From IMG/VR virus record IMGVR_UViG_3300031630_000008: a stretch of 43,643 nucleotides of DNA, one strand, 5' to 3'. Shown here one piece after another: positions 8,564 to 35,124 of this stretch. The stretch's first letter is position 1. Every line of letters starts with the position of its first letter. Source of the DNA: a virus. The translations under genes and the position numbers were made by a program. A model generated the notes under the pieces. That model made no database searches and was not told the origin of the DNA. It worked only from the letters and a program-made list of their open reading frames with translations.

Positions 8564-10801
8564 ATGGGTAAACTGGTCGAACAAACCCTCCGCACTATGT
8601 ACCAAGGCGTAAGTCGTCAACCAAGTACTGTACGCTTACCCGGTCAGGTAGAGGAAGCTGAGAATGTACTTTTCTCTGTAGTCTCAGGCGGGTTCTCTAA
8701 GAGGCCGGGTACTCAGCACTTAAAAAACACAGTAGTAAATGATAGTGACATCGCACTCTATGGCTACGAAAGAGACGCTGCCGAAAAGTATCTAGTCATG
8801 GTGGGTAACGGAACTATCTACGTCTATGATGTAGCAGGCAATCAGATGGTTGTAACAACCCCTTCAGGTACAACTTACCTAGAGGCTGCTACACCTTCTC
8901 AAGACTTTTCCTTCACTACTATCGCTGACCACACCCTTATAGCTAACAAGCAGGTAACTGTAGCTATGTCAGACGATGGTGTGTTTGATGCAACCACTAT
9001 GCCTCACGTATTGGTGCGCGAGGCTGACGCAACCTTCACCTTTAAACCTTCAACTCTATACACTAAACGTCCTACCATAGATCCAGATTATTATTCCTCA
9101 CCAAACGTGACTTACAGTTTGACGGATAATGCTGGTGGTCGGTTTGCTATCGATGCAGCTACCGGTTTAGTTACTGTTGCTGACCCGGCTTTATTCAATG
9201 CCACTACAAATGTTTCACACCCAATAACAGCTAGCGCGGTTAGTGTTGACGGAACAACCAACAGTCAGACTTTCAACATTTATGTGTACGCTTCATCTGT
9301 AGGAACTATTAGTGATGATGACCCTGACTTAGACTCTCCAGATGTTAATGGTATGGTGTTTGAAGGAGCACAAGTAGGCGATCTAGTAGGCCTTACGGTC
9401 TTTGCTGAAGACAGGGTAAAGAATGCCCAACCTAAAGTGGCAATCTTACCAGCTGATTTAATACCTACGCCTGATTTCGTAGGACATAAAATATCAGACA
9501 TTACTTTCTTCCGTAACCGACTAGGTCTTGTAGCTGACGAGACAGTGTTCTTCTCACAGGCTAGTGACTATACAAACTTCTGGCCTAAGACCGTAGCGCA
9601 AGTTATAGACTCTGATGCTTTTGGTCGAACAGCTTCTAGCTCACAGGTTAACCTAATCCGTTTTGTTGTTCCTTTCCGCAAGGCTTTATTCTGTTCTGCA
9701 GACACCGCTCAGTTTGAACTATCCGCTAATGCAGCCTTAACCCCTTCAGCTACAACTATAGATATCGCAACAATGTACACCGCTGAATCACTATGCAGGC
9801 CTATAGGCTTTAGAGATGAGCTGTACTTTGCTTCGCGTAGTGGTAGTAGCGCCGTTCTATTTGAGTATTACTACAGTGATACCTCGGTAGGTCATACAGC
9901 TAACGATGTCTTAATACATGCCTCTGGTTATGTACCAGCTCCTATCACCCATTTAGTTGGGGATACTGTAACTGGAACCATTCTAGCTTTGAGTGGTGCA
10001 GATCGTTCCTCCATCTATGTCTATAAGACCTTTTGGTCCGGTGATGAAAAGGCCCAATCGGCTTGGTGTAAGTGGACGTTTGGTGAGAATACGGTAATAC
10101 ATAGTGTTACTACTCTAGGTGGCGATCTATTCCTTGTGCTATCCCGTAATGGTGTAGTGGCTATTGAGAAGATGTCACTTAACGGTGACGAGAAACCTGA
10201 GCACTTTAAGTATCCTCTACGTTTGGATTCGTTACAGCACATCACAGGTACTTATGATTCTGTCGCTAATACCACCAGCTATGTTAGTCAGTATCCCATA
10301 ACTGAAAACACGGTAGCTATTGTTGATACAGCGAATGCAGCTAGTAACCTGAAAGGTCGTTTAATTACAACCACAGGTGTTAGCGGTAATACGCTTATAT
10401 CAACTGGGGATCAAACCGGTAACCCTATCTACATAGGTAATAACTACCTCATGTCGGTTGAACTATCCAAACAGTTTATCCGAGAAGGTAATGACGACAC
10501 TACAGTTACGACAGGTAGGCTACAGCTCAAACGTATCTACTTCGATTATAAGGACTCAGCGTTCTTGCAGGTTGAAGTAACACCCCACAAACGTACACCC
10601 CGAACGTTTACGTTTAATGGCTCAACCGTGGGTGGTTTAATCCAAGCCTCTCCTAATCTATTAAGCGGTGTTTTTGATGCCCCTGTTAGATCACAAGGCA
10701 GTACAGCAATTATTAAAATCCTTAACCCAACATATCTGCCATGCACAATTACAAGCGCAAAGTGGAAAGGGTTCTTTAACGAGATGACTCGACAGGAGTA
10801 A
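8564..10801 (+). CDS. Tail tubular protein B, T7 gp12-like, with an inserted cadherin-like segment
   Basis: Supported by size, position after gp11, and the gp12-like segment FFRNRLGLVADETVFFSQASDYTNFWP. The insert lies at about 9098-9420. Confidence 0.8.
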   Translation: MGKLVEQTLRTMYQGVSRQPSTVRLPGQVEEAENVLFSVVSGGFSKRPGTQHLKNTVVNDSDIALYGYERDAAEKYLVMVGNGTIYVYDVAGNQMVVTTPSGTTYLEAATPSQDFSFTTIADHTLIANKQVTVAMSDDGVFDATTMPHVLVREADATFTFKPSTLYTKRPTIDPDYYSSPNVTYSLTDNAGGRFAIDAATGLVTVADPALFNATTNVSHPITASAVSVDGTTNSQTFNIYVYASSVGTISDDDPDLDSPDVNGMVFEGAQVGDLVGLTVFAEDRVKNAQPKVAILPADLIPTPDFVGHKISDITFFRNRLGLVADETVFFSQASDYTNFWPKTVAQVIDSDAFGRTASSSQVNLIRFVVPFRKALFCSADTAQFELSANAALTPSATTIDIATMYTAESLCRPIGFRDELYFASRSGSSAVLFEYYYSDTSVGHTANDVLIHASGYVPAPITHLVGDTVTGTILALSGADRSSIYVYKTFWSGDEKAQSAWCKWTFGENTVIHSVTTLGGDLFLVLSRNGVVAIEKMSLNGDEKPEHFKYPLRLDSLQHITGTYDSVANTTSYVSQYPITENTVAIVDTANAASNLKGRLITTTGVSGNTLISTGDQTGNPIYIGNNYLMSVELSKQFIREGNDDTTVTTGRLQLKRIYFDYKDSAFLQVEVTPHKRTPRTFTFNGSTVGGLIQASPNLLSGVFDAPVRSQGSTAIIKILNPTYLPCTITSAKWKGFFNEMTRQE

Positions 10802-19021: not shown

Positions 19022-21123
19022 ATGGCTTACTCTTATGTGTCTTATATCGCCGAAACAGGTCAGACACAGTTCACTATACCTTTTAACTACCTCGATAAAG
19101 AACACGTCAAGGTTATGATTAACGGTGAACTATATGAATCCTTTGGTTGGTTTTCAGACACACAAATTCAAATTCTAGCGGCTACCAATGGTGACCGAAT
19201 ATACATCTCACGGGAGACTTCTCCTGAAGCGCGTTTAGTTGACTTCGTTATACCCGGTCAGCTAACAGAAGAAGACCTCGATACAGCCTTTACTCAGATC
19301 CATAACCTCTCCCAAGAAGCAGTAGACCAATCACAACTAGGTGTCTATGAGGACGTAGCCACTGGCAACTTCTCAGTTAAAGGTAAAACCCTTACAAATA
19401 TCGCAGAACCTGTTGACCCTGCTGATGCTGTAACCAAGGCCTACGTTGATAATATTAATCTAGGCGTAGACTTTAAGTATTCCGACATCTTAACTAAACA
19501 CACAGATGTGTCAGTTAAACACACAGACGTAGTGTTGATACGTGATGAGCTATATGGCTTAACCACGCACATGACTGCGCTTCCTTATGGGGCTACAGGT
19601 TCTGTTGCCTATAACGCAAACACCGGTGAACTTACCTTCTCACTATCTGAAGGACCTCAAGGCCCAATAGGTGCCACAGGTAATGCCGGAGATACAGGAC
19701 CTCAAGGACCCTTTGGTCCTCAAGGTGTTATTGGTCCTGAAGGCCCTCGTGGTATTCAAGGAGAATTAGGTAACACAGGTGCTGTAGGTGACCAAGGTGT
19801 TACAGGTAGCCAAGGCCCCCGTGGCACAGCAGGCCCGTTAGGTCCAACAGGACTTCAAGGTGGTGTTGGTGACGAAGGTCCTCTAGGTGCTACAGGTGAC
19901 ACAGGATCTCAAGGCCCTGAAGGTGGTGACGGCCCAATGGGTCCCGTAGGCGCTTCAGGTTCTCAAGGACCTACAGGTGACACAGGATCTCAAGGCCCTG
20001 AAGGTGGTGATGGTCCGTCAGGCCCAACCGGTCCTCAAGGTACTCAAGGCCTAACCGGTGATACAGGTTCTCAAGGCCCGGTAGGAAGTGAAGGCCCTAT
20101 TGGCGCTATTGGTTCTACAGGTACTCAAGGTCCTACCGGATTGACAGGTTCTCAAGGCCCTGTTGGCGGTGATGGTCCATTAGGCCCTGTTGGTACTCAA
20201 GGTCCTACAGGTGCAACTGGTGACACAGGCCCCCTAGGTCCCGTTGGTGACACAGGCCCCCTAGGTCCTACAGGTTCTCAAGGAACTACAGGCACCACAG
20301 GTGAGACTGGTCCTCAAGGTGTTGTTGGTGATACAGGCCCTCTTGGCCCAACCGGAACACAAGGCCCAACTGGAGCTACAGGCTTCACAGGTGCTCAAGG
20401 TCCTGATGGTGATGACGGTCCGCTAGGTCCGACAGGTTCTCAAGGAACTACTGGACTAACTGGAGCTACAGGAACACAAGGTCCTATCGGTGATTCGGGT
20501 CCTCTAGGCGCTACTGGATCACAAGGTACTCAAGGTATTCAAGGTGCTACTGGCCTACTAGGTGCTACAGGTTTAGATGGTCCATTAGGCCCTGTCGGTC
20601 CTCAAGGTACTCTAGGTGCTACTGGTGATACAGGCATTCAAGGACCTGTTGGAGATGCTGGTCCGTTAGGAGCAACAGGCCCTCAAGGTTCTCTTGGTGC
20701 TACAGGTTTAACGGGTGCTACAGGTGCTACAGGTTTAGACGGTCCATTAGGTCCTATCGGCCCTGTTGGTTCTAAAGGTGCTGTAGGCGACACAGGTTCA
20801 CAAGGACCATTAGGTAACGATGGCCCACTAGGTGCTACAGGATCGCAAGGACCCACAGGTACTACAGGTCCGATTGGTCCATTAGGCCCTCAAGGTATTC
20901 AAGGTGACTTCGGTAACCAAGGCCCTGTCGGCGACCAAGGTCCATTAGGTCCTGTAGGTTCCGTAGGTGACGCTGGTCCATTAGGCCCAACTGCATTAGG
21001 ACTTGCCTTCGGTAACTTCTACATGGACCCAACAACAGGAATGCTAACTATCGAATATTACGGTAGTGCCGCAGACCAAGACTTCTCAATCAATTCTAAC
21101 GGTGAACTAGAGGTAACAATCTA

Positions 21124-21124
<1 letters not shown>
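19022..21124 (+). CDS. Tail fibre protein with a T7 gp17-like N-terminal adaptor and a long collagen-like rod
   Basis: N-terminus [36 protein letters not shown] has the tail-fibre N-domain pattern. It is followed by about 149 G-X-Y triplets and a roughly 44-aa C-terminal tail. Confidence 0.8.
19652..20992 (+). repeat. Collagen-like G-X-Y coding repeat (about 149 triplets)
   Basis: In my reading of the translation, Gly occupies every third residue from [10 protein letters not shown] to GDAGPLGPT with no break. Confidence 0.85.
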
Positions 21125-22758
<1,634 letters not shown>

Positions 22759-26952: not shown

Positions 26953-27385
26953 GTAGGGTGGACGGGGTGTTAGACGGTGCGTGAGGCGGTGGTGAGGCGG
27001 GAGGGTGCTTTCAATTTTACGGGAAGATTCGTAAGGTCATATATCCCCTCGCGCACACTAACGCTACCCCCCGCCTACCCCCTCGGCTTGGACACAACGA
27101 TGGCTCAAATCGGATGGGTGGGGGTGGGCCTCAAGGCTTGCTAATTGCTCATCAAATCACTAGCTAACAGACATTAGACAGACAGTAACGCGCACCGTTA
27201 AGCGTATCGCCTGCTATTGGTGGGCTTTATCGTTACTAGCAGTGTTGTATATAGATTTAGTGTATTTAATTTGATACTCATTTGATCGCTATTGTATGGG
27301 ATGGAGGCGTTACGGCGTGGGCGTTTCGCTCTGATTCGGTTAGCTCAAACACTTGCACACCACTGTTTTTTCGTTTCGTGCACTG

Positions 27386-28616: not shown

Positions 28617-28657
28617 GTTTATCAGGTGGTTTTCAGTACGAGAGCCACCGAGTAAAC
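28617..28657 (+). promoter_or_regulatory. Conserved imperfect hairpin in an early leader, copy 2
   Basis: Same lower stem, internal loop and GG/CC as copy 1. The upper stem sequence differs but still pairs (GGTGGTTT / GAGCCACC). Confidence 0.5.
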
Positions 28658-28683
28658 CAAACGTAAAACAAAAGGAAGCAATC

Positions 28684-28872
28684 ATGAGAGCTACAAGCAT
28701 TAATGTGAGCTATTACAAAACTGTCGAGGCAATCACTCAGGCTATTCATTCTATCGAAAATGACAGTGCGAACTATCATGGGGATTGGTTAAGAGGTGGC
28801 CCCGATATAACGCTAAAAGAAGGGGCTAAAAAGAAATTAGCCGCACTGCATAAGAATCTAAACCAAACGTAA
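28684..28872 (+). CDS. Early hypothetical protein (62 aa)
   Basis: Shared RBS AAAAGGAAGCA. No motif. Confidence 0.5.
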   Translation: MRATSINVSYYKTVEAITQAIHSIENDSANYHGDWLRGGPDITLKEGAKKKLAALHKNLNQT

Positions 28873-28891
28873 AACAAAAGGAAGTATAAAG

Positions 28892-29196: not shown

Positions 29197-29403
29197 ATGA
29201 AGACTAAAACCCAAGTATACGCAAAAGCACAACGGTTAAGCGTCACGTTAAGGCACTCAATGCACAACCAAACCACAATTAATACAAACGAAAGGCCTTA
29301 CTATTATGACAACGTACAAACAGCGTTGAGCGCGTCTACAGCTATACACTGGCAAGATGTTTGGGATAGTTTAGCCATACGTCAGTCACAACTAAAAGGA
29401 TAA
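29197..29403 (+). CDS. Early hypothetical protein (68 aa)
   Basis: Shared RBS AAAAGGAAGCA. No motif. Confidence 0.5.
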   Translation: MKTKTQVYAKAQRLSVTLRHSMHNQTTINTNERPYYYDNVQTALSASTAIHWQDVWDSLAIRQSQLKG

Positions 29404-30961: not shown

Positions 30962-32203
30962 ATGACTAAGTTATTCCGTAGGACGGACAGCTCCGGTAAA
31001 GTTTTATCGCAGAACTGGAACTTCCACCTAAACGGTCAACGTAAGTCGACTGGATGTAAGACCAAACGCGAAGCTATGGAAATAGCCACGTTAATGGTTC
31101 AGAGAGAACTCTCACATAAACATGCCGGGTTAAATTCCGAGGCTTCTATAGATGAAGTTGTGGCGTTGTACGTTAAGCGTCAGACCCTTATGTCAGAGTC
31201 AGGTAAAGGACAGGCTGAGGCCTTCCAGAAGCGTATATGCGGACAGTTTCCGCTTGATGAGTTGTACCGGGTGCCTAACCGCATCGTCCCATACAGCCTC
31301 AAGACAAAGCGCCTCTGGTCTACCATAACTAATAGGGATTTAGATGCCATCATCATGCATCGCAAAGAAGAAGGATACGCTAATGCATCGATCAACAAAG
31401 AGATCGACCAGCTACATGCTATCCAGAAGCAATGCAAGAAGTCATGGGGCATCAAGATCAACCACGAGCTGGACTTTGACGATCTGAAGTTAAAGGTTAA
31501 GAAGAAAAGACGTGCTGCTTCAGAAGTTGAGGAGCAAAGGTTAATCGATGCAATGAATCCTGTTACGAAGACTTACTTAAACAAGTGTACGTGGGAGCGA
31601 GCACCTCGCAACCAAAGGTTGTGGGCTGTGGACACCTTCCATTTGCTAATAACCTACCTCGATACTGGAGTCAGATCGTCTGAAGGCAGGAACATGCTTT
31701 GGGATGAGGTCGACACAGTGAACTGGTTAGGCGTTAAGGTCTATCGTTCTAAGACAGATCGCACGGACATGCTGCAGCTGACTGACCGTCTACGTGAAGT
31801 GCTGCAGACTCGGTTTAAGTATCGTGATGTAAGGAACTCAAAGTTTGTGTTCCCACATGCCTTCGATAATGAAAAGTCTAAGACTGGATGCCTAGGTGCC
31901 TTACGCAAGGGTATCGACAGAGCAGGTCTAAACGACCCTGACACCGTCAAGCGTCACGGTAAGTTTACGGTTCACTCATTACGTGATTCGTATGCCACCA
32001 GACTGACAGAGCAGGGCATCATACCTTCGGAACTAATGCATCTATTAGGTCACGCTAACGAGGAGATGAGTATGAAATACATTCATATGCGCCCCTCTGA
32101 TGCTATTACCAAAGGTACTTTGTTGCGTAATGATGTAGCAGGTGTTCTACCAGAGGGTTTGGGAGGCACATTAGTAGATGCTTATAATGAGAACCGTCTG
32201 TAA
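30962..32203 (+). CDS. int: Tyrosine recombinase / phage integrase
   Basis: Catalytic-type motifs TGVRSSEG (Arg), HSLRDSYATRL (H-x-x-R) and LLGHANEEMSMKYIH (His...Tyr). SD AAGGAG. Confidence 0.9.
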   Translation: MTKLFRRTDSSGKVLSQNWNFHLNGQRKSTGCKTKREAMEIATLMVQRELSHKHAGLNSEASIDEVVALYVKRQTLMSESGKGQAEAFQKRICGQFPLDELYRVPNRIVPYSLKTKRLWSTITNRDLDAIIMHRKEEGYANASINKEIDQLHAIQKQCKKSWGIKINHELDFDDLKLKVKKKRRAASEVEEQRLIDAMNPVTKTYLNKCTWERAPRNQRLWAVDTFHLLITYLDTGVRSSEGRNMLWDEVDTVNWLGVKVYRSKTDRTDMLQLTDRLREVLQTRFKYRDVRNSKFVFPHAFDNEKSKTGCLGALRKGIDRAGLNDPDTVKRHGKFTVHSLRDSYATRLTEQGIIPSELMHLLGHANEEMSMKYIHMRPSDAITKGTLLRNDVAGVLPEGLGGTLVDAYNENRL

Positions 32204-32319
32204 GTCTTTGATTTGACAGACATGATTAAGTTTACTGTACAGACATAATGCAGACAGTTTACTAGTAGTAACCGGCAAAGCGTTGATTTTATTAGATAAT
32301 ATCATTACACTCAGAGTCA

Positions 32320-32376
32320 TCCACAGGCCACGGGGATAAGTCTAGCACTATCTCTGTAACCCCCGTAGCCTGTGGA
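32320..32376. repeat. 16-bp inverted repeat (15/16 complementary) with a 25-nt spacer
   Basis: TCCACAGGCCACGGGG (32320-32335) pairs with CCCCGTAGCCTGTGGA (32361-32376). Confidence 0.85.
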
Positions 32377-32494
32377 ATCCTCCCAATTATGTACCCATTT
32401 GACCACCTCATTGGCGTGTGAAAGGGGTACAGTAAACCTATGACTAAGACCTTGTAACTAGTAGAGTTAAGGGCGATTTAAGGGGTTGTTGAAC

Positions 32495-33766
32495 GTGACA
32501 GACATAATACAGACAGAAAGTGCATCTGAGAATACTCTGCGTATAACTGAGAAGGAAAGAGAGATCTATTGGGAAGCCGCTGCCATTGACAGGGGAAAAG
32601 ACCGTTATAGAGGGACGTTTAGTACAGTAAAGGTTGGACGTGATGGAACTGTTAAACATGAATCAGCCGAGTTAGGGGACGTAGCGCCCGGTCAAATCAT
32701 ATTGAAGGAAATGATGCTTCATGCTGTTCCATACTTCCAAGCCGCCATCGAAGAAGCGAAGCGAGAAATCACTTCAGGACGCCGTGGTGCTCATAAAGAA
32801 TGGTGGTGGTTGATCGGCTGGTTGACAGCTGAGGAGATTGCCTTAGTTACAGCCAGAACAATCCTAACTGAGAGAGCCAGTGGTGATTCTTACCAAGGGC
32901 GTTCAGCCACAGGTTTGAACCTACGCATAGGCCAAGCCGTTAAGGAACAGATTGAATTCAACAGGTGGAAAAAGAACTCCAAGATCTTAGCAGCTGACCA
33001 AGGCGGCTTTGATTTTGCTGCTTGGCTAATCACTAAAGTGGGTGGCACGATTAACCGCCGCACATGGTCACGTTGGAAGGCTAAGATGGACGCCATAGAG
33101 AACGAGGAATGGCCCTCAGACACGCGTGTTCAGATAGGGGCTAAGTTGTTGGACCTTATGATTAAACACGGTGGCGGGTGGTTTGAGGACCGCCTAGTCT
33201 ACAAGACGGGAAAGACTGAGAGGCGGGTGTTTCTCAGCGAAGCAGCACAGCAGGCCATCACGGATATCAACGCACAATTGGAAGTGAATCGTCCTTATAT
33301 GGTGCCGATGCGCTGCCAACCTAATCCTTGGGAGCATAAGTACAATGATGAGGGCAAGCTAACTGGGTTTACAGGCGGCTATGAGATTATTCAGCACAAG
33401 ATTATGCGGTCTGGTATGTACAAACACACAGCCAGCTACCCGGAAGCCTTGAGCGATAAGTTTCTAGACGCCATAAACGTGGTGCAGTCCACTGAGTGGC
33501 AAGTAAATGATTTCATTCTTGACACAATGTTAGTTATACGTGCAGAAGGTGGGGAGTTAGGTGGTATGCCTGCCCTTGAAAACGATCCACTACCTGCCAA
33601 GCTCACAGATGAGGAATGGGATCTTATGGATCAGACTGAACGCACTGAATTGAAGCTTATGATAAGCCGAATTCACGAGGACAACGCTAAGATGCAATCC
33701 AAACGTGAATCACTAATCCGCAAACTTGATATGGCCCGTAGCTTACGCGGTGAAACTACTTATTAG
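32495..33766 (+). CDS. T7-type single-subunit RNA polymerase, N-terminal half (N-domain plus thumb equivalent)
   Basis: Colinear with roughly the first 415 residues of T7 RNAP, up to AINVVQSTEWQVN...KRESLIRKLDMARSL. The likely start is GTG 32495, 9 nt after AAGGGG; the track start is TTG 32486. It ends at TAG 33764-33766. Confidence 0.85.
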   Translation: MTDIIQTESASENTLRITEKEREIYWEAAAIDRGKDRYRGTFSTVKVGRDGTVKHESAELGDVAPGQIILKEMMLHAVPYFQAAIEEAKREITSGRRGAHKEWWWLIGWLTAEEIALVTARTILTERASGDSYQGRSATGLNLRIGQAVKEQIEFNRWKKNSKILAADQGGFDFAAWLITKVGGTINRRTWSRWKAKMDAIENEEWPSDTRVQIGAKLLDLMIKHGGGWFEDRLVYKTGKTERRVFLSEAAQQAITDINAQLEVNRPYMVPMRCQPNPWEHKYNDEGKLTGFTGGYEIIQHKIMRSGMYKHTASYPEALSDKFLDAINVVQSTEWQVNDFILDTMLVIRAEGGELGGMPALENDPLPAKLTDEEWDLMDQTERTELKLMISRIHEDNAKMQSKRESLIRKLDMARSLRGETTY

Positions 33767-33804
33767 TTTATAAGAACCACTTATTAGTACATGAGAACTA
33801 AAAC

Positions 33805-35124
33805 ATGACCAAACGAATTTCATCACGACACACATACCCACACTTTGCAGATTTCCGTACACGTTTATACCCTATGGCGCAGGACTTGAACCCACAGGGT
33901 GACCAGATCTGTAAGGGTCTGTTGCAATTCCACCACGCCAAGCCGTTAGGTGACCGAGGGCTTCACTGGTTGAAGGTTTCGTTAGCCAACACAGCAGGGC
34001 AGGATAAAGCCACATGGGCTGAGCGGATAGCTTGGGTAGATAAAAACCACGACTTAATCGTTGACTCAGGTCTAAACCCTCTGGACGGTGACCGTTTGTG
34101 GGCAGATGAGTCCATCGATGAGCCATACGTTTTTCTAGCGACAGCCCGTGAGTATGCATTGGCTACAAGGCTTGATAATCCTGCACATTTCCTTAGCCGT
34201 ACGGTCTGTGCCATGGACGGAGTATGTAATGGAATGCAAATCCTATCTCTATTAGGTAAGGACTCAGCCGGTGCGGTTAAGACCAACTGTAGCAGCCTCC
34301 AGAAACGCTATGACCTGTACACAGAGGTAATGGATGCCGTGATTAAGCTTAATAATGATTGCGCTCTACAAGGCCGAGAGGAGGCCTTAGCGTGGATGGG
34401 AAACATCAAAAGGGTAACAGTGAAACGAGCAATAATGACAACGCCCTACGGCGTTACACCTCGTGGAATAGCCAGCCAGTTAGTGAAGGATGGCTTCTGT
34501 GATAACCTTGATGGTCGTAAAGGAACCAACGCTGCTTACATGCGTGACCTTATAGTTGAAGCTCTAAAGGATGTGGTGACTTCTGCCTCTACTATCATGG
34601 AATACTTCCAGCAATGTGCTAAAGCTCTCGCAGCACAGGAGATCCCGCTTAAGTGGGTGACGCCAACCGGTGTAGAATGCACACAGGCTTACCATAAGCT
34701 GCGTAAAACTAAGGTTACGACACTGATGGGACAGTTTTCTTTGTGGGATGAGGACTCAGACTTAGGCCTTGATGAGCGCAAGAACTACCTAGCTGCCAGC
34801 CCTAACGTCATTCACAGCTTTGATGCTGGGTTACTCCAGAGTGTGGCACTTCGCCTCAAGAATGATTACGGAGTTAGCTCCACCGCCTTTATACACGACA
34901 GTTATGGTGTCCACCACGGACAGTTAGACTGCGGAGAGAATGCGGTTGATGTCCTCCATAAGGTAATCAGGGAAGAAGCGCACCGAATCTTCAGCGGTAA
35001 CTACCTGACTGAGTTCCGGGAGCACATCCATTCCTATGCACCACATGTAGAACTGCCTATGCCTCCAGCTCAAGGTGATTTTAACGTGGATGAACTATTA
35101 AACTCTCCTTACTTCTTCAGCTAG
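33805..35124 (+). CDS. T7-type single-subunit RNA polymerase, C-terminal half (palm plus fingers, catalytic)
   Basis: YPHFADFRTRLYPMAQDLNPQGDQICKGLL matches T7 FPYNMDWRGRVYAVSMFNPQGNDMTKGLL. Also present: motif A CAMDGVCNGMQ, RAIMTTPYG, SPNVIHSFDA, motif C FIHDSYG, and the C-terminus SPYFFS. Confidence 0.88.
   Translation: MTKRISSRHTYPHFADFRTRLYPMAQDLNPQGDQICKGLLQFHHAKPLGDRGLHWLKVSLANTAGQDKATWAERIAWVDKNHDLIVDSGLNPLDGDRLWADESIDEPYVFLATAREYALATRLDNPAHFLSRTVCAMDGVCNGMQILSLLGKDSAGAVKTNCSSLQKRYDLYTEVMDAVIKLNNDCALQGREEALAWMGNIKRVTVKRAIMTTPYGVTPRGIASQLVKDGFCDNLDGRKGTNAAYMRDLIVEALKDVVTSASTIMEYFQQCAKALAAQEIPLKWVTPTGVECTQAYHKLRKTKVTTLMGQFSLWDEDSDLGLDERKNYLAASPNVIHSFDAGLLQSVALRLKNDYGVSSTAFIHDSYGVHHGQLDCGENAVDVLHKVIREEAHRIFSGNYLTEFREHIHSYAPHVELPMPPAQGDFNVDELLNSPYFFS

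Follow-up and report, generated by a model that had tools for sequence, protein, structure and literature searches.

The question raised by the viral genome IMGVR_UViG_3300031630_000008 (IMG/VR; 43,643 nucleotides [nt], referred to below in its entirety as the window) is whether a T7-type RNA polymerase (RNAP) can be encoded in nature by two separate genes. T7-family polymerases are the textbook single-chain RNAPs and a biotechnology workhorse, and split T7 RNAPs have been engineered for use in logic gates, biosensors, and continuous evolution. In the window, an initial annotation made from the nucleotide sequence recognized two adjacent open reading frames (ORFs) as a T7-type RNAP in two separate, intact genes, a reading that stood up in our analysis with regard to colinearity, motifs, break position, and intactness. 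The results presented here indicate that the two genes very probably encode two subunits of one T7-family RNAP in a temperate T7-like marine phage. The features on which the argument turns are as follows.

32495..33766, plus strand: RNAP subunit gene 1 (ORF1), 423 amino acids (aa) from the GTG at 32495, ending in ...RGETTY and a stop; PF14700.
32486..33766, plus strand: ORF1 from an alternative TTG start, 426 aa.
33767..33804, plus strand: intercistronic spacer, 38 nt, reading TTTATAAGAACCACTTATTAGTACATGAGAACTAAAAC, with a stop in each frame; the sequence is unique in the window.
33805..35124, plus strand: RNAP subunit gene 2 (ORF2), 439 aa from an ATG start; PF00940.

The GTG at 32495 is the likelier start of ORF1 because a Shine-Dalgarno sequence (AAGGGG) lies 9 nt 5' of it and because homologues are called at 423 aa. 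ORF1 matches the Pfam domain RPOL_N (PF14700, E = 6e-12) and residues 62 to 406 of T7 RNAP (E = 2e-6; phmmer against the PDB), and in a MAFFT alignment it is colinear from end to end with T7 residues ~1 to 415, that is, with a full-length N-terminal domain plus the thumb. Its product is predicted to be the N-terminal promoter-binding domain and thumb; the initial annotation likewise described it as the N-terminal domain plus thumb. ORF2 likewise proved colinear with the palm and fingers, as that annotation held. It matches RNA_pol (PF00940, E = 1e-85) and T7 RNAP residues 416 to 882 (E = 1e-44; phmmer against the PDB, where mitochondrial RNAPs matched equally well), and it is equivalent to T7 residues 416 to 883. 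By both MAFFT and phmmer, the two products cover non-overlapping, contiguous parts of T7 RNAP, and no paralogue of either half was found elsewhere in the window.

ORF2 begins with a 10-residue extension (MTKRISSRHT) that has no counterpart in unsplit enzymes and continues through the T/DxxGR block (DFRTR), the palm, a palm insertion, the fingers, the specificity loop, and a C-terminal YFFS. D138 and D365 are the equivalents of the catalytic T7 residues D537 and D812, R203, K207, and Y215 are those of T7 R627, K631, and Y639, and H337 is that of T7 H784. Every column found to be invariant across 50 T7-family enzymes is preserved in the window, including those of the catalytic aspartates, the motif B R/K/Y residues, H784, and H811. 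In DFRTR (ORF2 residues 16 to 20), the D and both R residues are the invariant ones, and a threonine replaces the glycine of DxxGR. All of the motifs quoted in the initial annotation are present (CAMDGVCNGMQ, FIHDSYG, SPYFFS, and YPHFADFRTR, the last in place of FPYNMDWRGR), and its description of both halves as intact is borne out by the invariant columns as well as by the purifying selection described below.

The position of the break was also described correctly, as falling just before the segment equivalent to FPYNMDWRGR. In the MAFFT alignment, ORF1 ends at the equivalent of T7 W415 and, after the extra MTKRISSRHT, ORF2 resumes at T7 F416, with YPHFADFRTR as the counterpart of T7 FPYNMDWRGR. 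T7 RNAP has its thumb at residues 326 to 411 and its palm from residue 412; the break is at the thumb/palm border, 4 residues past the T7 boundary, in the loop that leads from the long thumb helix into the first palm strand and just upstream of DxxGR.

A split of this kind could in principle stem from an error of sequencing or assembly, or it could mark a single ORF that has recently been inactivated and is now a pseudogene, and relatives are the natural means of deciding the matter. We used ORF1 and ORF2 as queries in a protein search over 5.8 billion proteins. ORF2 retrieved five clusters at 84 to 88% identity, all of 438 to 439 aa, and ORF1 retrieved eight clusters at 74 to 100% identity, of which seven have 423 aa and the eighth was called at 439 aa. 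Exact copies of ORF2 were found on 19 contigs and of ORF1 on 6, and sister clusters were found on 17 to 53 contigs, including some from Tara Oceans data. The check suggested in the initial annotation, namely, whether the enzymes of related phages are broken at this site too, gave a positive answer in 10 out of 10 loci: the window and nine relatives (L001 to L003 and L006 to L011) drawn from Logan, ENA, IMG/VR, and a GenBank contig of a metagenome-assembled genome (MAG). The ten loci come from differing samples and were produced by differing assemblers. One of them, L009, is a prophage within a 421-kb bacterial contig.

In these ten loci, the break is at the identical residue, with RGE[T/V]TY and a stop on one side and MT[K/N/T]R[I/T]SSRHTYPHFADFRTR on the other, and ORF1 and ORF2 are always adjacent. 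ORF2 has an ATG start and the conserved 10-aa extension in every case, reading MT[K/N/T]R[I/T]SSRHTYPHF. While these flanking residues are conserved, the spacer measures 10, 11, or 38 nt, the two genes are offset in frame by +1 or +2, and the stop is either TAG or TAA, a variability that speaks against an artefact. Counts by the Nei-Gojobori method gave nonsynonymous differences per site (pN) of 0.07 to 0.19 against synonymous differences per site (pS) of 0.66 to 0.83 in both halves, with synonymous sites saturated; where the synonymous rate (dS) could be estimated, omega was 0.02 to 0.07. These values indicate that both halves are under strong purifying selection. Moreover, no unsplit copy at more than 56% identity was found in the protein searches.

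Of course, genuine artefacts of this type do occur. One candidate, P0223/L094 (350-2688), a distant 443-aa N-terminal RNAP protein, was considered as a window-type split and rejected because it is a plain frameshift after ...DLNPQ; its contig has 1.8x coverage, and the homology continues in another frame without a start codon. It is a true artefact and serves as a negative control. The window differs from it in that independent samples show the same break repeatedly, at ten loci and on dozens of contigs. The conservation across ten loci and the saturated pS with low omega exclude both sequencing error and a decaying pseudogene, and the comparative data thus refute this explanation, to which we assign almost no probability. 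They indicate instead that the split is real and old, with its position fixed among the relatives.

The spacer itself bears on a second explanation, that the two ORFs are joined during translation. Two small features are relevant here.

33758-33766 and 33779-33787, plus strand: direct repeat ACTTATTAG, the first copy formed by the last ORF1 codons and stop; missing from relatives.
33791..33808, plus strand: five-codon mini-ORF (ATG AGA ACT AAA ACA TGA) inside the spacer; not conserved, the spacers of relatives being short.

As first noted, each of the three frames is closed by a stop within the 38-nt gap and ORF1 and ORF2 do not share a frame, so that a single indel cannot join them. In relatives the spacer is 10 to 11 nt; the window spacer is 27 nt longer, a peculiarity of this genome. 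The ACTTATTAG repeat resembles the trace of a small duplication or insertion by which the spacer grew in this genome alone. Programmed recoding, whether by frameshift, stop read-through, or a ribosome hop in the style of T4 gene 60, would produce a single polypeptide, and the recurrence of the ORF1 end 21 nt downstream has a superficial likeness to a take-off and landing site. The second ACTTATTAG copy, however, also ends in TAG, so that a ribosome landing there would terminate again, and the 10- or 11-nt spacers of the relatives lack the repeat. ORF2 also has its own conserved ATG, and the occurrence of both +1 and +2 offsets among relatives leaves no single conserved recoding mechanism. We consider recoding very improbable.

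Mobile introns and inteins are known to occur in phage replication genes, and a split intein or an intron could restore one chain or one mRNA. Yet ORF1 ends at the T7 W415 homologue and ORF2 adds 10 residues, which leaves no room for an N-intein of ~100 aa and a C-intein of 35 aa, and a spacer of 10 to 11 nt cannot hold an intron. The lengths of the sequences exclude this explanation, and its probability is negligible.

If the two products are made separately, the question becomes how gene 2 is translated. Most genes of the window have clear AGGAG-type Shine-Dalgarno sequences, whereas ORF2 has only a weak GAGAA; in the relatives, a short stretch of purines lies across the ORF1 stop, 10 to 11 nt upstream of the ORF2 ATG. 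Because the genes are adjacent on one strand, they are probably co-transcribed. Likewise, translation of ORF2 is probably coupled to the termination of ORF1, given the stop-to-start distance of 10 to 11 nt in the relatives and the weak Shine-Dalgarno sequence that overlaps the stop. Such coupling would mean that the two subunits are synthesized next to each other and in nearly equimolar amounts. In the window, the TGA of the mini-ORF overlaps the ATG of ORF2 in an ATGA arrangement, and the mini-ORF might, speculatively, be a bridge that preserves translational coupling.

To describe the fold, we use S1 for a break at T7 278/279 (discussed below) and S2 for the window type, with a break at T7 415/416. 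ORF1 and ORF2 were joined head to tail and modeled with AlphaFold2 using a 122-row alignment of unsplit enzymes, S1 pieces, and S2 pieces. The joined model is a complete T7-like polymerase fold (mean predicted local distance difference test [pLDDT] score, 94.7; predicted template modeling [pTM] score, 0.91) with template modeling (TM) scores of 0.76 to 0.80 against T7 elongation complexes. A single-sequence AlphaFold run of the joined protein reached a pLDDT of 36 and was discarded. Confidence in the joined model is low only at residues 1 to 8 and 421 to 427, the latter being the junction (TTY/MTKR), which lies between the long thumb helix (380 to 417) and the first palm strands. That the low-confidence segment falls exactly at the junction suggests that the new termini lie in a flexible linker.

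These results suggest a working scheme. The two chains would associate non-covalently into an enzyme with T7 RNAP architecture, to which gene 1 would contribute the N-terminal promoter-binding and refolding domain and the thumb and gene 2 would contribute the palm, the fingers, the catalytic and template- and NTP-binding residues, and the specificity loop. Promoter specificity is expected because ORF1 has a full-length N-terminal domain and ORF2 has the specificity loop, and the assembled enzyme should act as a complete promoter-specific T7-type polymerase. Judging from homology and genome type, it would transcribe the middle and late phage genes.

Several points weigh against this scheme. The glycine of DxxGR is a threonine in the window, although the same change is seen in the nearest S1-split and unsplit relatives (L004, L014, and L015). 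The Shine-Dalgarno sequence of ORF2 is much weaker than those of most genes of the genome. Repeat searches across the window revealed no convincing T7-style promoter consensus. The structural model is an artificial fusion based on an alignment that includes unsplit homologues and speaks to compatibility with the fold, not to subunit assembly; both the binding of the two products to each other and transcription by them are things that we infer from sequence.

Relatedly, the heterodimer might not be obligate. ORF2 could be a minimal polymerase that works alone or with some other partner, and ORF1 could be a dissociable, sigma-like initiation or regulatory factor; the fact that S1 genes can be separated by up to ~1 kb and other ORFs suggests some independent expression. 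ORF1, however, holds the thumb and N-terminal elements, which in T7 RNAP make up the path by which the RNA leaves during elongation, and the two genes are adjacent at every window-type locus, 10 to 38 nt apart. Experimental precedents point in both directions: in one engineering study, T7 fragments were used as exchangeable sigma-like and core pieces, but a three-piece T7 RNAP had no activity with any fragment missing (PMC4299498), and phage N4 mutants in either RNAPII gene lose middle transcription (PMC4496689). A sigma-like ORF1 therefore seems to us unlikely, and two subunits of one enzyme continue to be the preferred reading.

Searches for more distant relatives exposed a second and commoner split. 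Among the ORF2 homologues listed at 36 to 56% identity, 105 out of 120 are 540 to 600 aa long, not 800 to 900 aa. The S1 form consists of an upstream gene of 250 to 310 aa with RPOL_N homology and a catalytic gene of ~555 aa, and such a pair was present in every locus inspected (L004, L014, L021, L022, L024, L031, L038, L096, and L097), including prophages in isolates of Devosia enhydra (L096) and Marivibrio halodurans (L097). The S1 break lies between a conserved PW and a conserved GGY, at T7 278/279. The genes overlap by a few bases (Devosia), are 28 to 33 nt apart, or are separated by 0.4 to 1 kb with small unrelated ORFs in between (L004, L021, L024, L031, and Marivibrio). An exhaustive HMMER search of 1.84 billion representatives with ORF1 as the query gave a consistent picture: of the best 146 new ORF1 representatives, 96 are stand-alone proteins of 240 to 350 aa that end at query residues ~280 to 283, and 28 are unsplit enzymes of more than 740 aa. 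The 423-aa window type forms a single 50%-identity cluster and is the rarer of the two split architectures in its own clade.

The S1 phages belong to the same clade as the window (catalytic part, 36 to 56% identical), likewise encode the enzyme in two genes, and have the same layout of integrase, attachment (att) site, RNAP, single-stranded DNA-binding protein, RusA, primase-helicase, and DNA polymerase. They differ in that the break is 137 T7 residues further upstream, which leaves the thumb on the catalytic gene. We found no publication describing either the S1 or the window split, although our literature coverage was incomplete and this is absence of evidence only. Unsplit relatives also exist, at 43 to 50% identity (L015, L018, L019, and L020). 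These four also carry an upstream integrase, and the idea that splitting is tied to a temperate lifestyle was rejected on that account.

The order in which these architectures arose is a matter of inference. In a bootstrapped neighbor-joining tree of the catalytic region, the window clade is next to the S1 lineage L004 (67%), and the two are next to the unsplit lineage L013/L015/L020 (68%), within a radiation made up mainly of S1 forms, whose deep nodes were not resolved. The distance from PW to GGY is 9 to 14 residues in all members of the clade, split or not, but 4 to 5 in T7 and the outgroups, and in the window this region is a confidently modeled beta-hairpin. The hairpin fits an ancestral S1 split that was re-fused in some lineages, including that of the window, which then broke at 415/416; a loop that had grown before it was cut would fit as well.

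A broader scenario, which we regard as possible but put forward only tentatively, is that single-subunit phage RNAPs have repeatedly and stably become multi-subunit enzymes. A large temperate clade would have split at 278/279, the window lineage would have re-fused (with the PW...GGY hairpin as a remnant) and broken again at the thumb/palm border, and split sites would turn over, the split itself possibly being adaptive. If this is true, the split may serve as an AND-gate against leaky polymerase activity, the genes being situated at the prophage edge, the S1 break makes the N-terminal promoter-binding part a gene of its own, and nature has provided optimized split points for synthetic biology.

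The genomic context is that of a temperate T7-like phage, and two features define the region upstream of the RNAP genes.

30962..32203, plus strand: tyrosine integrase gene (PF00589, E = 1e-20), directly upstream of the RNAP genes.
~32300-32312: attachment site, between the integrase gene and RNAP gene 1, located by means of prophage L009.

All long ORFs of the 43.6-kb genome are on the plus strand. PHROG matches include portal/adaptor, scaffold, capsid, tail tube A and B, a lysozyme-domain internal protein, the large terminase, and a family A DNA polymerase, and together with the Pfam context of the relatives they make up the T7-type gene set, with its own RNAP, primase-helicase, and exonuclease. 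The att site was placed between the integrase gene and RNAP gene 1 because homology between L009 and the window starts at ~32312 (L009 region compared, 9512-10001; window counterpart, 32204-32494); no tRNA was found at the att site.

In integrated L009, the RNAP genes are at the prophage edge beside host genes (tolB-pal-cpoB-nadA and others). In such a lysogen, the RNAP genes read inward from host DNA and are cut off from the upstream phage helix-turn-helix regulator and integrase genes. The same edge layout is seen upstream of the RNAP N-terminal gene in the Devosia (L096) and Marivibrio (L097) prophages. This placement may help to silence the polymerase in lysogens.

The host NadA protein on the L009 contig is 82 to 83% identical to MAG proteins of uncultured marine Gammaproteobacteria, Pseudomonadales, and Oceanospirillaceae and ~69% identical to those of cultured Marinobacterium and Motiliproteus, which points to an uncultured Oceanospirillaceae-like marine gammaproteobacterium as the host. 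A near-complete relative, L008 (GenBank JAPYOO010000011.1; 43,292 bp; coverage, 305), is a contig of a MAG labeled Bermanella sp. and probably represents a phage genome that either was binned with that Oceanospirillales population or infects it.

Three further sets of features in the window deserve mention.

32239-32257 and 32498-32516, with a weaker copy at 27167-27185: 19-nt repeat ACAGACATAAT[G/A]CAGACAG.
28653-28678 and 28859-28884, with a third copy of 73% identity at 29269-29294: 26-nt perfect direct repeat TAAACCAAACGTAAAACAAAAGGAAG.
19022-21124 (700 aa) and 21124-22758 (544 aa), plus strand: two consecutive large ORFs with collagen-like GXY triplet repeats and dozens of 9-nt-phased DNA repeats.

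One copy of the 19-nt repeat lies between the integrase gene and RNAP gene 1, and another covers the first codons of the latter; they are possibly arm-type integrase sites or an operator. The 26-nt repeat sits among small ORFs that precede the genes for the regulator and the integrase and is a candidate promoter or operator element. The 700- and 544-aa ORFs probably encode collagen-like tail fiber proteins.

How the window enzyme relates to known systems can now be considered. The initial annotation knew of no natural two-gene version in a T7-like phage, and we likewise found none in the literature; a two-gene T7-family RNAP is nonetheless known, namely, RNAPII of the N4-like phages (PMC4496689). 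These phages were the only natural source of multi-chain T7-family polymerases that we found in the literature, which is not proof that others are absent. N4 RNAPII is an active heterodimer of gp15 (269 aa), comprising a truncated N-terminal region, the thumb, and DxxGR, and gp16 (404 aa), comprising the palm and fingers with motifs A to C; a survey of more than 500 homologues found only 24 heterodimers, all from N4-like phages (PMC4496689). Alone, N4 RNAPII has no sequence specificity and transcribes only denatured DNA, so that the cofactor gp2 is needed (PMC4496689).

N4 RNAPII (Schitoviridae; structure 6DT7) resembles the window enzyme in that adjacent same-strand genes encode consecutive parts of the T7 fold, with the N-terminal region and thumb on the upstream gene and motifs A, B, and C on the downstream gene. 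The differences are substantial. In a joint alignment, the N4 break is at T7 G453/K454, after DxxGR, whereas that of the window is at T7 W415/F416, before DxxGR and ~38 residues earlier; the N-terminal domain is truncated in gp15 but full length in ORF1. The window genome is 43.6 kb, temperate, and of T7-type gene content, without a virion RNAP (its largest ORF is 1393 aa), whereas N4-like genomes have one. ORF2 matches gp16 (6dt7_B) with an E value of 7e-5 and T7 RNAP with one of 1e-44, which makes the kinship to N4 remote. Because ORF2 is far closer to T7 RNAP than to gp16 and its nearest relatives are unsplit or S1, sequence comparison indicates that the window split arose independently of the N4 split.

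Splitting of a T7-family RNAP would thus represent at least three independent events. Natural splits at T7 278/279 and 415/416, both unlike the N4 site, appear to have been kept by selection over long divergence, and naturally split T7-type RNAPs are common in an uncultured temperate phage clade at the 278/279 site. The fold would seem to tolerate assembly from separate chains without helper domains, and the natural splits would offer ready-made, evolution-tested split points and interfaces. They also provide a system for asking whether a separate N-terminal promoter-binding part has regulatory value in lysogeny, and they caution against the assumption, in annotation pipelines as in taxonomic definitions, of a single RNAP gene.

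Among artificial precedents, whether engineered or proteolytic, T7 RNAP was reportedly split at about residue 179 by Ikeda and Richardson and by Shis and Bennett. The initial annotation's statement that engineered split T7 RNAPs are functional agrees with the study by Segall-Shapiro et al. (2014; PMC4299498), which describes 36 in-frame sites in five surface-exposed seams, those at 67, 179, and 601 among them. A T7 phage with a fragmented RNAP (Bull lab) was viable, with an initial fitness loss of about twenty doublings per hour (PMC6009699). Engineered splits are like that of the window in that one fold is reassembled non-covalently from fragments encoded adjacently on one transcript and broken at surface loops (PMC4299498, PMC6009699). 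They differ in being artificial, in usually needing helper zippers for good activity, and in imposing a large fitness cost on the phage, whereas the window split is natural, old, and selected. The heavy cost of a fragmented RNAP in T7 makes the long-term natural maintenance of splits all the more notable. Taken together, the activity of N4 RNAPII, the working engineered splits, and the viable T7 with a fragmented RNAP provide precedent for a two-subunit enzyme.

In a megablast search with the locus as the query, 50,697 phage records gave no match, and tblastn against phage records gave only unsplit enzymes, at no more than 38% identity; the closest cultured phage in these records reached 34.5% (ORF2) and 26% (ORF1). 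Brevundimonas phage Babayka and Mesorhizobium phage Lo5R7ANS, which were candidates for splits in the hit tables, proved to have single genes. The single-chain RNAPs of the Autographiviridae share with the window enzyme the domain order, T/DxxGR, motifs A, B, and C, the specificity loop, and a C-terminal aromatic tail. They consist of one polypeptide, whereas the window has two, at ~21 to 34% identity and in a temperate phage; the hairpin from PW to GGY is also 9 aa longer in the window enzyme. In sum, the window enzyme would be a real heterodimeric T7-family RNAP with an origin of its own, a full N-terminal domain, and a new break point.

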